Of a stretch of 64,000 bases of DNA, positions 8,775 to 32,147 are shown in pieces. A model generated the notes under the pieces. That model had not been told where the DNA came from, ran no database searches, and was given only the letters and a program-made list of their open reading frames with translations. Numbering within the stretch: position 1 is the stretch's first letter; every line of letters starts with the position of its first letter. The DNA comes from Escherichia coli (lineage in GTDB: Bacteria; Pseudomonadota; Gammaproteobacteria; Enterobacterales; Enterobacteriaceae): the NCBI RefSeq assembly GCF_003334785.1, contig NZ_QOWV01000001.1; one strand, written 5' to 3'. The translations under genes and the position numbers were made by a program.

Positions 8775-8811
8775 ATTTGCTTGCCGGTTATTTTGCTTCC
8801 GGCAAGCAAAT
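8775..8811. terminator. Bidirectional terminator between convergent acnA and ribA
   Basis: 13-bp perfect inverted repeat atttgcttgccgg ... ccggcaagcaaat. Confidence 0.6.
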
Positions 8812-24781: not shown

Positions 24782-25733
24782 ACCATTCCTTATGTTTCAG
24801 AGGGTTAGCCATGGCACCCAAAATATCAGAAATCACGTTAACAATAATGACCAGTGAGCCACACACCATCACTCCGGCGGAAATGGCTGCGTAATCCTGC
24901 TGGCGGATGGCGTTAATTAACCAGCGCCCTAAACCCGGCCAGCTAAAAACCATTTCGGTGATCATCGCCAGCGTCAGCATGGTGGAAAACTGTAAGCCCA
25001 GGCGAGGAATAACCGGCGGTAACGCGTTATGCAGAACGTGGCGACGCAAAATAGTAAAGCGCGACAAACCGCGGGTCGCCGCCGCTTTTACATAGTTCTG
25101 GTCATACACTTCGATAGTGCTGATACGCATCAGGCGGATCACTTCAGTTGTTGGCGCAACCGACAGGGTGATCACGGGCAATATCATATGGCGGATTGCG
25201 CTCATGATCATTTCATCCCGCCATGGTGAGTCCGAAAGCCAGGCATCAATCAACGCAAAACCGGTAATCGGTTTCACTTCGTAGAGCAGATCGAAACGCC
25301 CTGAAACGGGCAACCAACCTAGCGTGAGTGAACAAAACAGCGTCAACAGAAGCGCCAGCCAGAACACCGGGATTGAAAAGCCCAGTAAGGCGATGGCGTT
25401 GATCAAGTTATCCTGCCACTTATGGCGCGTAATCCCGGCAATCATCCCCACGGGGATGCCAACAATCAGCGCAAAACCGAAGGCGAGGATGCACAGTTCC
25501 ATCGTCGCCGGGAAGACCTCTTTTAACTGTTCGGCAATCGGTTGACCGTTAATGCTGGAAACACCAAAATCCCAGTGGATCAGGCCGTTAAACCAGAACA
25601 CCCAGGCATTCCACAGTGACGCGCCTTGTAACGGCGCATGAGGGGTGAAATAGCTCAAGCTGAAGCCAACGAAGGTCAGCAGGAACAAGGTGACAATCAA
25701 TAACAAAATGCGGCGTAAGGTGAAGATAATCAT
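24768..25733 (-). CDS. sapB: ABC transporter permease SapB
   Basis: 321-aa polytopic membrane ORF; overlaps sapC. Confidence 0.95.
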
Positions 25734-27373
25734 GGTTTTTTCACCTCATCCTGTTTCTCGCGATACACCCCAGCAAAGGAGGCGTTACCAAACGGGCTAA
25801 GTACCAGACCTTTGATATCGTACCGATAGGCCTGCAAACGCAATGACGACGCCAGCGGCAAAATGGGCAATTCCTGCGCCAGAATACTCTGCGCTTCGTC
25901 ATAGGCTTCAATACGCGCCGCCAGCTGCTGCGAAGAGAGCGCCTTACGCAATACGCTGTCGAATTTCGGATCGCACCAGTGGGCGAGGTTGGTCTGCGAA
26001 TGAATTGCCGCGCAGCTCAGTAACGGACGGAAGAAACTGTCCGGGTCGTTACTGTCCGTCGCCCAACCGGATAACGTCAGATCATGGCTCATATCCATCA
26101 ACCGCGCCTCCTGAAAGCGACCTTCTACCGGCACAATCACCACTTTTACGCCAACCTGCGCCATATCCGCCTGAATCAGTTCGGCAGTTTTCAGTGGACT
26201 GGGGTTCCACGCCTGCGAACGTGTGGGCACCCACAGTTTCAGCGTTAAATTTTCCAGCCCCAACGACTTCAACTGTTCGCGCGATTTCGCCGGATTGTAT
26301 TCAGTAATTTTAGCCTCGTTGTCATAGGCCCACGAGGCGCGCGGTAAAATAGAGGCCGCCGTTTCAGCCGTACCATAATAGATGGATTGCATCAGGCGCT
26401 GGTTATTAATCGCCAGTGCCAGCGCATGGCGGACAGCGGGATTATTTAGCGGCGGTTTGGCGGTGTTAAATGCCAGATAGGCGACGTTCATCCCAGGACG
26501 CAGCGTTAAACGCAAGCGCGGGTCGTCACGCAAAATGGATAGCTGGCTGGCAGCAGGCCAGGCCAGAACGTCGCATTCCCCGGTCAGGAGTTTCGACAGA
26601 CGTCCGGTGCCGCCGGAGCCTAAATCCACCACTACCTGCGGCATTAACGGTTTACCGCGCCAGAAGTCATCATGACGTTGTAGGCGAATAAATTGCCCGG
26701 CGCGGTATTCCGACAACTGATACGGACCGGTGCCGACCGGTTGACGGTCGAGTTGCTCCTGGCGATCTTCTTTCTCTAACTTCCGGGCATATTCTGCCGA
26801 CATGACCGAAGCATAATGGGTTGCGAGGTGCCACAAAAAAGAAGCATCCGGCTGGGCGAGTCGGAACTCAACGGTATGATTATCCAGTTTGCGGACGCTT
26901 TTCACGTTATCGGCAAATTGCAGGCTGTCGAAGTAGGGGAAGTTGCTGCCGTTGACGTTATGCCACGGGTTGTTGCGGTCAAAAATTCGCTGGAAGGTAA
27001 ACACCACATCGTCGGCATTCATTTTACGAGTGGGAGTAAACCAGTCGGTTTTTTGAAACGGAACATCGCGACGCAGGTGGAAGCGATAGGTCGCGCCGTT
27101 GTCGAGTACTTCCCAGCTTTCGGCAAGTTCCGGCATCAGGCGATAGGTATAGGGATCGACATCCAGCAGTCGATCATAAAACTGGGCGGCAAGGGTATCG
27201 ACAATTAACCCACTGCTCGCTTTGGATGGGTTAAAGGTGTTGACTTGCCCGCTGACGCAATAGACAAAACCGCTGTCGCGGATATCAGCATGCGGGGGAG
27301 ATTCAGGCGCGGCGATTGCCTGACCACTCACAAGTCCAGCAATCACCAAAAGAGACGATAATACCTGGCGCAT
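25730..27373 (-). CDS. sapA: Periplasmic substrate-binding protein SapA (family 5 SBP)
   Basis: 547-aa ORF with signal peptide [21 protein letters not shown]; ATGA overlap with sapB. Confidence 0.95.
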
Positions 27374-27620
27374 AATATTAAGGGATTTTATGTAAAGAGG
27401 CTATCTTACTAATATTTAATGACATTTGCCATTACCGTTTGTGTTCAGGGGTCGTAATGAGGGCCGTGTGGTTGGTCGTTGAACAGGTGACGTCGCCATC
27501 TGTTCAACATTCGTACCCGTGATTTCTCTATAACTATAACTCACAGAACAACTTAGCGAGGAGCAGAGCGGTACGATCGTGAGAAACCCATTAAAGCACG
27601 CTGCAGTGCGTGTCATTGTT

Positions 27621-27650
27621 AGCCAGATGCGGCGTGAACGCTTTATCCGG
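27621..27650. repeat. REP (repetitive extragenic palindrome) element
   Basis: gccagatgcggcgtgaacgctttatccgg matches the E. coli REP consensus; lies between sapA and ymjA. Confidence 0.7.
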
Positions 27651-27685
27651 ACAACGATACTGACCGATCGTCTGCAATTAAATCA

Positions 27686-27931
27686 TTACTCATTACCCCA
27701 TTGATTCAAAAACTCTGCGATCTCATCAATGCGTACGGGATTAATCCCCGCTTCAGCAGCCATTTCATGTTGGGCTTCTTCGCTGATCTCTTCATTGTTC
27801 ATCAAACGGGTGAGCAGTAACTGGAAGTAGTGGGCCAGCGGTGTGCGTTCAGCCTCTGCGACAGGCTCTGCGCATTCGGTCGCGTACTCATCGGCAATAT
27901 CAAAATATTTTAGCGGGATATCGTGGTTCAT
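27686..27931 (-). CDS. ymjA: DUF2543 protein YmjA
   Basis: 81-aa acidic [43 protein letters not shown]... Confidence 0.85.
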
Positions 27932-28064
27932 TATTTGCCCCTGGGGTTAATGCGCTAAGCATAAGGGCGGATGATAGCACTCGTGATCCGGGTCATACAT
28001 CTTTTTATAGTTAATGGCGCGGCGCGTTACCCTCAGGCAGGATAATGCGCCGCGCATCCGACTA

Positions 28065-29450
28065 TTACGTTTCACTCACCGGCGTTCTGTCACCATCATA
28101 CAACGGCACTTTGCGATAGCGGCGGATCAGATACCATAAATATGCGCCGCCTAACGAAGCCCATACCAGACCGAGTGTCAGTGACGTTGACTCGAGGTTA
28201 ACCCACAGCACACCCACCGTCAGCGCGCCAACCAGCGGCATCAGCAAATAGTGGAAGTGATCCTTCCAGCTTTTATTCATTCCTTTACGCCGCCAGAAAT
28301 GATTAAACACCGACAGATTCACGAAGGTAAACGCCACCAGAGCACCGAAGTTAATTAACGCTGTGGCGGTAACTAAATCGAAGAACAGCGCCGACAACGC
28401 GACAATCCCGACCATAATGACGTTGAGTGCCGGAGTCCGCCATTTTGGGTGCACATAGCCAAACACGCGCTCCGGAAACACATTGTCACGCCCCATCACA
28501 TACAGCAGACGCGACACGCTGGCATGTGAAGCCAGGCCAGAGGCTAACGTGTTCACAAACGTGGTGCAGAGGAAAATCGACTGGAAGAGCTTGCCGCCGA
28601 CGTACAGCGCAATTTCAGGCAGTGCGGCATCCGGATCTTTAAAGCGGCTGATATCGGGAAAGAACAGCTGCATAAAGAACGACGCCGCGATAAAGATAAC
28701 GCCACCGTAGACCGCCGTCAGGAAGATGGCTTTCGGGATCACGCGTGCGGCGTCCGGCGTCTCTTCCGAAAGCGTGGTCACCGCATCGAAACCGAGGAAG
28801 GAGAAACAGACAATCGTCGCCCCGGTAATAATCGGGATCAGGTGCGCGTTCTCGCTGATAAACGGCTGAAGTGACCAGACGGTGCCAACGCCTTCTCCTT
28901 TATGCAGTCCCTGAACTACCAGGAAGATAAACACCACCATGATGGAGATTTGCACCAGTACAAACAGGGTATTGAAGTTAGCGACCAGGTTGACGCTCTT
29001 CAGATTCGCGGCGGTTAAAATGGCGACGAAGGTTACCACCCACACCCACGGCGGCACTTCCGGGAAGAGGGCGGAGAGATAGATTTTCGCCAACAAGACG
29101 TTAATCATCGGCAAAAAGAGATAATCCAGCAGCGATGACCAGCCGACCATAAATCCGACGTGCGGGTTAATCGACTTTTGCGCGTAGGTATAGGCCGAAC
29201 CGGCCTCCGGAAACTGGCGAACCAGTTTGCCGTAGCTGATAGCGGTAAACAGCACACCCGCCAGCGCCAGCAAATAGGACGCCGGAACGTGACCGTCGCT
29301 AATGCCGGAGACAATACCAAAAGTATCAAATACGGTCATCGGCGTGAGATAGGCCAGACCCATCATCACCACCTGCCACAATTTCAGTGATTTTCGCAGA
29401 CGGGTTTTGCCGGGTTGCGCAGCAATATTCAGTGGTGAATTAATAGCCAT
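28065..29450 (-). CDS. puuP: Putrescine importer PuuP (APC family)
   Basis: 461-aa protein starting [35 protein letters not shown] (track ORF extended 18 codons). Confidence 0.95.
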
Positions 29451-31214: not shown

Positions 31215-31326
31215 AAAATATAATGACCACCATTCGAATCTGTATGCAAACTAAATGTTTGTCAAATGTTAAATTGAGTTTGCAAAAATGAAAACCCACT
31301 GCTAGATTGAAAAAATATTGAACATA
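31215..31326. promoter_or_regulatory. puuA-puuD divergent control region with two candidate PuuR boxes
   Basis: aaaatataatgacca (31215-31229) and aaaatattgaacata (31312-31326) are near-repeats of one another; the PuuR-box interpretation is from memory of the published motif. Confidence 0.4.
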
Positions 31327-31382: not shown

Positions 31383-32147
31383 ATGGAAAATATAATGAAC
31401 AATCCGGTTATCGGTGTCGTAATGTGCAGGAACAGGCTTAAGGGTCATGCGACCCAGACTCTGCAAGAAAAGTACCTGAATGCCATCATCCATGCAGGCG
31501 GCTTGCCTATTGCGCTACCACATGCGCTGGCGGAACCGTCATTACTTGAACAACTTTTGCCGAAACTCGATGGCATTTATCTTCCTGGTAGTCCCAGCAA
31601 TGTGCAGCCGCACCTATATGGTGAAAACGGCGATGAGCCTGACGCCGATCCCGGGCGTGATCTTCTGAGCATGGCGATAATTAATGCCGCACTCGAAAGG
31701 CGCATCCCCATTTTCGCCATCTGCCGGGGTTTACAAGAACTGGTGGTGGCAACCGGTGGTTCGTTGCATCGCAAGCTGTGCGAACAGCCTGAATTGCTGG
31801 AACATCGGGAAGATCCCGAACTGCCGGTGGAACAGCAATATGCACCGTCGCATGAAGTTCAGGTTGAAGAGGGGGGATTACTGTCTGCGTTGTTACCTGA
31901 ATGTAGCAACTTTTGGGTAAACTCTCTACATGGACAAGGGGCGAAGGTCGTTAGCCCACGGTTGCGTGTTGAAGCTCGCTCGCCGGATGGCTTAGTTGAG
32001 GCGGTTAGCGTCATCAATCATCCTTTTGCGCTGGGCGTACAGTGGCACCCGGAATGGAACAGTAGCGAGTACGCGCTTTCGCGTATATTGTTCGAGGGCT
32101 TTATCACCGCTTGTCAGCACCATATCGCTGAAAAACAGCGACTCTGA
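31383..32147 (+). CDS. puuD: Gamma-glutamyl-GABA hydrolase (class I glutamine amidotransferase-like)
   Basis: 254-aa protein starting MENIMNNPVIGVVMCRNRLKGH; catalytic Cys in AICRGLQE. Confidence 0.93.
   Translation: MENIMNNPVIGVVMCRNRLKGHATQTLQEKYLNAIIHAGGLPIALPHALAEPSLLEQLLPKLDGIYLPGSPSNVQPHLYGENGDEPDADPGRDLLSMAIINAALERRIPIFAICRGLQELVVATGGSLHRKLCEQPELLEHREDPELPVEQQYAPSHEVQVEEGGLLSALLPECSNFWVNSLHGQGAKVVSPRLRVEARSPDGLVEAVSVINHPFALGVQWHPEWNSSEYALSRILFEGFITACQHHIAEKQRL

Follow-up and report, generated by a model that had tools for sequence, protein, structure and literature searches.

A lineage-specific 31-bp quasi-palindrome between two sapA promoters of Escherichia coli

The sequence analysed here (the window) is a 64,000-nucleotide stretch of an Escherichia coli genome (assembly GCF_003334785.1, contig NZ_QOWV01000001.1) in which sapA and ymjA are both encoded on the minus strand, separated by a spacer of 312 bp (27374–27685) that has the length given in the initial annotation and is identical to K-12 MG1655 1357111–1357422. 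SapBCDF is annotated as a putrescine exporter, and no record examined carries an annotated feature inside the spacer. The initial annotation also placed a REP element here, which corresponds to a REP-like segment at approximately 27620–27655 whose sole Rfam signal is a sub-threshold naRNA4 match (27585–27652), and described a perfect 9-bp stem about 100 bp from the sapA start as a candidate leader structure of the sap operon. The inverted repeat is indeed present, at 27478–27508, 2 nt to the right of the 27476–27506 first reported, and lies 105–135 nt upstream of the sapA ATG. The features of the locus are as follows.

25730–27373, minus strand: sapA coding sequence.
27396, minus strand: P1, the proximal sapA start (K-12 1357133), giving a 23-nt leader without the hairpin (PMC6131387).
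27403–27408, minus strand: likely −10 of P1, sense TAAGAT, assigned as lying 7 nt upstream of the start mapped at 27396.
27417–27434, no strand assigned: imperfect inverted repeat TAATGGCAAATGTCATTA over the −35 region of P1, separate from the hairpin.
27478–27508, minus strand: 31-bp quasi-palindrome or hairpin, 15-1-15, with 13/15 positions complementary in K-12.
27478–27486, minus strand: 3' arm, sense CTGTTCAAC, which together with the 3' half of the loop holds nearly all of the variation.
27500–27508, minus strand: 5' arm, sense GTTGAACAG, nearly invariant in Escherichia.
27521–27526, minus strand: P2, the distal sapA start or starts; the G at 27526 is K-12 1357263 (PMC6131387).
27521, minus strand: alternative P2 start, a C, at K-12 version-2 coordinate 1355282, with 2 reads (PMC3415461, supplementary file 2).
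27533–27538, minus strand: likely −10 of P2, sense TATAGT, assigned from the sequence and the alignment, 7 nt upstream of 27526.
27686–27931, minus strand: ymjA coding sequence, whose transcripts (starts 27962/27964) read through into sapA across the hairpin.

The arrangement GTTGAACAG-(13 nt)-CTGTTCAAC has a single occurrence in the 64-kb window (27478–27486 and 27500–27508), and the repeat is more extensive than the initial annotation described, with 15-nt arms at 27478–27492 and 27494–27508 around one central base. On the sapA-sense (minus) strand the RNA forms 9 bp, an A.C mismatch, and a further 4 bp (one of them G.U) closed by a GAC loop, with a fold energy of −15.9 kcal/mol and z = −2.96; one of 200 shuffled sequences is as stable. 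The hairpin persists when the whole P2 leader is folded, with no pairing between it and the sapA translation start region in that fold, and the leader as a whole folds no better than its shuffles (z = −0.6).

The bare 9-bp perfect stem is not unusual against chance, as perfect stems of at least 9 bp with loops of 3–20 nt occur nine times in the window, compared to 4.3 ± 2.2 in dinucleotide shuffles. The extended form is unusual: repeats with at least 13 of 15 positions complementary and a spacer of at most 7 are found at seven loci, compared to 0.42 ± 0.65 in the shuffles, such that they are about 17 times commoner in the window. The six others are at 58529–58565, 22024–22060, 8775–8811, 13250–13281, 645–680, and 28018–28054. 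Those at 645–680 and 13250–13281 finish in T runs, like intrinsic terminators, that at 58530–58564 is a perfect 15-bp inverted repeat, and that at 28018–28054 sits between ymjA and puuP.

Two published data sets locate the transcription starts. SMRT-Cappable-seq (Supplementary Data 2) reports sap operon starts at K-12 1357133 and 1357263, together with ymjA-sapA read-through transcripts from 1357699/1357701 (PMC6131387), and modified 5'-RACE places a single sapA start, supported by 2 reads, 148 nt upstream of the ATG and gives a ymjA start with 94 reads (PMC3415461). After coordinate conversion both studies agree on the ymjA starts, and the coordinate mapping is thereby validated. The two P2 calls are 5 nt apart and give a leader of about 150 nt, in which the hairpin occupies +14/+19 to +44/+49 (for starts 27521/27526) and is centred at +34; relative to P1 it extends from −82 to −112, with its centre at −97. 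Transcripts from P2 (27526/27521) thus include the hairpin and those from P1 (27396) leave it out. P2 is the only start in one data set (2 reads) and both are present in the other, the counts not being comparable. No sapA start of K. pneumoniae is found in the available part of PMC3415461.

A consensus promoter and terminator scan of 27300–28000 returned no sites, the −10 of P2 included, and the promoters were therefore assigned via the published starts. The P1 promoter is the best-conserved part of the spacer in an alignment of 28 sequences (Escherichia, Citrobacter, Klebsiella, and Raoultella), with one substitution in its TAAGAT hexamer, and the −10 of P2 has the counterparts TATATT in Citrobacter and TATACT in Klebsiella. 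The TAATGGCAAATGTCATTA repeat over the −35 region of P1 is the spacer's best-conserved element, almost invariant in these four genera, yields the only consensus helix reported by RNAalifold, and matches the PuuR box only loosely (10–11 of 15 positions by hand); it is a better candidate for a sapA operator than the hairpin. A further sapA promoter, ATGACA-15-TTTAAT, was predicted by Shimada et al. 2014 (PMC3946193) at 27616–27590 in the window. Transcription from it would likewise include the hairpin in a leader, but both start-site data sets lack a start at that position. The segment 27590–27616 overlaps a 5-bp G+C hairpin followed by CTTTAATGGGTTTCTC, which looks more like a weak ymjA terminator located just past the REP-like unit.

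A scan for sapA in one genome per species gave 80 loci (L003–L082; E. albertii and E. fergusonii are not among them), which over the 330 nt upstream of sapA fall into two unrelated architectures. Type A is found in Escherichia, many Citrobacter, the Klebsiella oxytoca group, Raoultella, and some Lelliottia and Enterobacter; its P1 core, GGTAATGGCAAATGTCATTAAATATTAGTAAGATAG, with TAAGAT as the −10, is almost invariant, and a P2-like −10 and the block GGTAYGAAYGTTGAYCAG are discernible. Type B, with a different upstream region, is found in Salmonella, most Enterobacter, Kluyvera, and others, and carries GTGCGATACAC. In Salmonella, Enterobacter, and several other genera the C-terminal part of a coding sequence (...LLKKHQ-stop) ends within about 120 nt of sapA, and this gene upstream of Type B sapA is taken to be pspF. 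Citrobacter species are divided between the two types. YmjA is encoded upstream of sapA in the Escherichia loci only.

The 5' arm lies in block GGTAYGAAYGTTGAYCAG, which is partly common to Citrobacter. The palindrome itself is restricted to E. coli and Escherichia sp. E1V33, plus a version with one mismatch in Escherichia sp. MOD1-EC7003. No homologous hairpin is present in Citrobacter, Klebsiella, or Raoultella, and RNAalifold reports no consensus helix at the hairpin site over the 28 sequences. Although 64% of cells in the alignment pair at this site, that figure is due to the nine Escherichia rows; the remaining sequences form 5–10 of the 13 pairs, discontinuously, and the other genera fold different small hairpins (z from +0.7 to −1.8). 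Clearly significant hairpins (z = −3.8 to −7.5) are confined to E1V33 and to E. coli other than the B2-type alleles (L085/L089) and the rare L086; the B2-type, L086, and MOD1 alleles give weaker ones (z = −1.5 to −2.4), and E. whittamii and locus L024 have lost the hairpin (z = −0.6 and −0.3), their 3' arms each carrying two or three substitutions that are not compensated. One column varies in the 5' arm, compared to most of those in the 3' arm and the 3' half of the loop. Compensatory, two-sided changes within Escherichia number 0 of 13 pairs, with a covariation score not above that of shuffles, and six of the 13 depart through broken pairs only.

A different structure is seen in Type A Citrobacter leaders, where a small hairpin, CGCGA-N8-TCGCG (A1 columns 44–61; L015, L016, L012, and L022), lies around locus positions 1385–1410. 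One of its pairs is G-C in L015, G.U in L022, and A-U in L012, which hints at real covariation, in a structure different from that of E. coli. A short ORF starting MN(V/F/I)DQV and ranging in length from 7 to 28 codons overlaps it.

Allele-specific searches spanning 61 nt were used to count the alleles among 5423 E. coli records, and the four commoner ones are as follows.

K-12 allele: 1655 records, 30.5%, −15.9 kcal/mol.
Loop T>C allele (G.U to G-C): 1653 records, 30.5%, −18.6 kcal/mol.
Allele with an additional C>T (A.C to A-U; L084/L088): 732 records, 13.5%, −23.3 kcal/mol.
B2-type allele (A>T giving a U.U mismatch, and C>T giving G.U): 1045 records, 19.3%, −12.0 kcal/mol.

The L084/L088 allele, which includes O157:H7, is a perfect 15-1-15 palindrome with a 14-bp stem, and the three alleles with intact stems (at least 9 bp) together account for about 75% of E. 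coli genomes. A rare allele, L086 (E. coli N96), has a fold energy of −9.0 kcal/mol, such that stability spans −9 to −23.3 kcal/mol inside one species. The 3' arm of L086 has TGAACA, the reverse complement of the TGTTCA of other strains, in the same place (equivalent to 27480–27485 of the window), beside a CG>AA change, and together these look like the footprint of a template switch. Changes that lower complementarity also occur, namely a C>T in the inner stem of K-12 and the A>T and C>T of the B2 type; as several natural changes have this effect, drift acts as well.

The proposal that the hairpin is a candidate leader structure of the sap operon thus stands in part. It is transcribed within a real sapA leader and in the ymjA read-through RNAs, but a second start lies downstream of it, and the covariation expected of a conserved structure is absent, with neither an RNAalifold helix nor a compensatory pair; both are grounds on which the initial annotation itself would count its proposal as refuted. 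The hairpin belongs to the leader of a subset of transcripts, and a regulatory role in the sap operon receives no support.

Like intrinsic terminators and attenuators, the hairpin is stable and lies early in a long 5' leader with an ABC-transporter operon downstream; unlike them it has no U-tract, anti-terminator pairing, mapped 3' end, Rho region, or conservation. The sequence past the stem is CGACCAACCACACGG, with no U-tract or terminator-like site in the scan of 27300–28000, and the supplements of PMC7815308 (Term-seq 3' ends and Rho regions) have no entry for sapA, for ymjA, or anywhere in 1355–1357 kb, a negative result whose power is limited by the low expression of both genes. A cmscan search of 27200–28100 with Rfam 15 (E ≤ 10) gave no match over 27478–27508. 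Like REP and BIME elements, of which there is a REP-like unit about 110 nt upstream in the same spacer, the element is palindromic, but it is single-copy, does not resemble the REP consensus, and is without an Rfam naRNA/REP signal; across 5422 E. coli genomes the median is one occurrence each, with no second genomic copy, unlike a dispersed repeat. Stabilisers of the ompA type, which are 5'-terminal, have a hairpin within a few nucleotides of the 5' end; the sapA hairpin is likewise near an mRNA 5' end but begins 13–18 nt from it.

We lean towards the view that the element is a young, lineage-specific quasi-palindrome shaped by template-switch mutation and drift, with no dedicated function, a reading to which we give slightly better than even weight and in which we infer both the template-switch origin and the absence of function. 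Under this reading the element, confined to E. coli and its closest relatives and situated between two sapA promoters, would be young. The 5' arm would have stayed constant as part of an older conserved block, and the 3' arm would have gained its complementarity to the 5' arm in the E. coli lineage, probably by template-switch mutation. In some lineages template switching probably then perfected the palindrome, and in others drift has eroded the pairing. It is transcribed only in the long-leader sapA mRNAs from P2 and in the ymjA read-through RNAs, the short P1 mRNA being free of it.

The site has the form of a quasi-palindrome, an imperfect repeat with a short spacer (15-nt arms, 1-nt spacer) and with variants that raise complementarity at the mismatches. 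The C>T change that converts A.C to A-U and makes the palindrome perfect, and the TGAACA swap of L086, both fit templated mutation. Template switching in E. coli preferentially turns imperfect inverted repeats into perfect ones (PMC5941160, PMC7202029), and the approximately 17-fold excess of extended repeats over shuffles fits that published view; a related known phenomenon is that E. coli has too many perfect inverted repeats genome-wide for chance (PMC5941160). The sapA site resembles the template-switching quasi-palindromes of the thyA hotspot and lacZ reporters (PMC7202029): these too are imperfect repeats with a short spacer (the sapA example being non-coding), and the sapA alleles differ exactly at the mismatches, one of them perfecting the palindrome and a rare one having a hexamer reverse-complemented in place, with one arm stable and the other changing. 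The sapA site differs in that its templated origin is only probable and that several of its changes reduce complementarity.

Some observations sit less well with the reading as a quasi-palindrome without a dedicated function. The stem is intact in about 75% of genomes and perfected in 13%, and lineage-specific selection would give the same distribution; and YmjA lies upstream of sapA only in Escherichia loci, so the hairpin could have a job in ymjA read-through. As to its direction of change, E1V33, which has the palindrome, is closer in sapA distances to E. whittamii than to K-12, and the palindrome may therefore be ancestral and decaying; on these comparisons, an old palindrome that has since decayed is just as possible as a newly built one. 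Whichever the direction of change, the substitution patterns indicate that its pairing is not kept up by compensation.

Of the competing explanations, the one that survives best, which we think unlikely though it retains some weight, is an Escherichia-specific functional RNA hairpin acting on the long transcripts (the P2 leader and the ymjA read-through), where it could be a processing or stability element, provide insulation from the much stronger ymjA promoter, or hide an AUG at its base. It lies inside mapped transcripts, is stable, persists in the whole-leader fold, and shares its restriction to Escherichia with the ymjA-upstream-of-sapA arrangement; the 94 reads of the ymjA start, compared to the 2 of P2, in PMC3415461 mean that read-through could matter, and the predominance of the three intact alleles is as this explanation would have it. 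It is weakened by the lack of covariation and by uncompensated substitutions in E. whittamii, L024, MOD1, the B2 type (about 19%), and L086, as well as by the missing U-tract, 3' end, and Rho region. From general knowledge, a start 13–18 nt from the 5' end is also too far for an ompA-type stabiliser. The whole leader is no more stable than its shuffles (z = −0.6), and the hairpin forms no pairs with the region of the sapA translation start.

Pure coincidence, a chance inverted repeat with neither mutational bias nor function behind it, is improbable. About four perfect 9-bp short-loop stems are expected per 64 kb, but a 13/15 repeat is expected only 0.42 times per 64 kb, or about 0.002 times per 312-bp spacer, and a fully perfect 15-1-15 version is present in 13% of genomes.

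Less probable again is that a dimeric transcription factor, perhaps a polyamine-responsive one such as PuuR, recognises the element as its DNA operator. The element is a 31-bp near-perfect dyad, centred where an upstream activator or looping site (−97 from P1) or a roadblock (+34 from P2) might be, and the exporter downstream is annotated for putrescine. The PuuR box consensus is reportedly AAAATATAATGAACA (Nemoto et al. 2012), and the TGAACA of the arms also ends that box. The box is found with 0–2 mismatches at 31215–31229, 31310–31324, and 31387–31401 in the divergent puuA-puuD spacer, against 2.1 matches expected in the whole window; this clustering fits the known PuuR operators. The hairpin is absent from the box matches at up to 3 mismatches, agreeing at about 9 of 15 positions by hand, and was rejected as a PuuR operator. 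More generally, conservation is limited to one half-site, the other being hypervariable even among Escherichia sequences, a pattern in which dimer operators do not evolve, and there is no second similar genomic site at BLAST sensitivity. A literature search for transcription-factor binding at sapA found nothing relevant, and PMC5934670 makes no mention of PuuR or sapA.

The remaining ideas concern translation within the long leader. At the base of the stem, the AUG at 27510–27508 begins a 21-codon ORF, MLNRWRRHLFNDQPHGPHYDP (27448–27510), followed by a C-rich, G-poor tract. From this one may sketch a recent regulatory innovation peculiar to Escherichia, which would be linked to ymjA and the puu cluster having arrived upstream of sapA. 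In it the hidden uORF AUG and the C-rich tract would together act as a Rho-dependent gate, coupled to translation and possibly sensitive to polyamines, on the long leader and the read-through RNA, the alleles setting putrescine export; we regard this as highly improbable.

The weakest proposal, to which we attach next to no credence, is a leader-peptide attenuator in which Rho-dependent termination within the long leader would be controlled by translating the upstream ORF: the 21 codons are open in K-12, E1V33, E. whittamii, and L024, by hand count C makes up about 44% and G about 12% of the 41 nt past the stem, and other polyamine operons use such leaders (e.g. mdtU-mdtJI, the mdtU leader being discussed in PMC7815308, and speFL-speF), but the ORF is cut to three codons (MLN) in the B2 type (about 19% of E. 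coli) and MOD1, its residues vary freely between species, its Shine-Dalgarno match is weak and its start codon occluded, and no Rho region or 3' end is reported at the locus (PMC7815308). A 66-codon ORF that also overlaps the hairpin (27416–27616) is not a gene, being interrupted in the B2 type and shortened in MOD1 and L024.

The consequences differ among these readings. Were one of the competing explanations right, strain-specific hairpin strength would be a simple natural switch on a putrescine exporter, and were the translation-coupled gate real, the perfect O157-type and the weakened B2-type alleles would set different levels of putrescine export. If the element is, as we favour, a young quasi-palindrome without a dedicated function, there would be little consequence for the biology of the sap operon: one candidate leader structure would be removed, and the search for sapA regulation would shift to the conserved P1 promoter and the repeat at 27417–27434. 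The series of alleles within one species, graded from −9 to −23 kcal/mol, would then have modest value as a natural case of palindrome turnover: it contains a perfect 31-bp palindrome (about 13% of genomes) as well as a local inversion carried by a rare lineage, and it could serve to calibrate models of template switching against drift.
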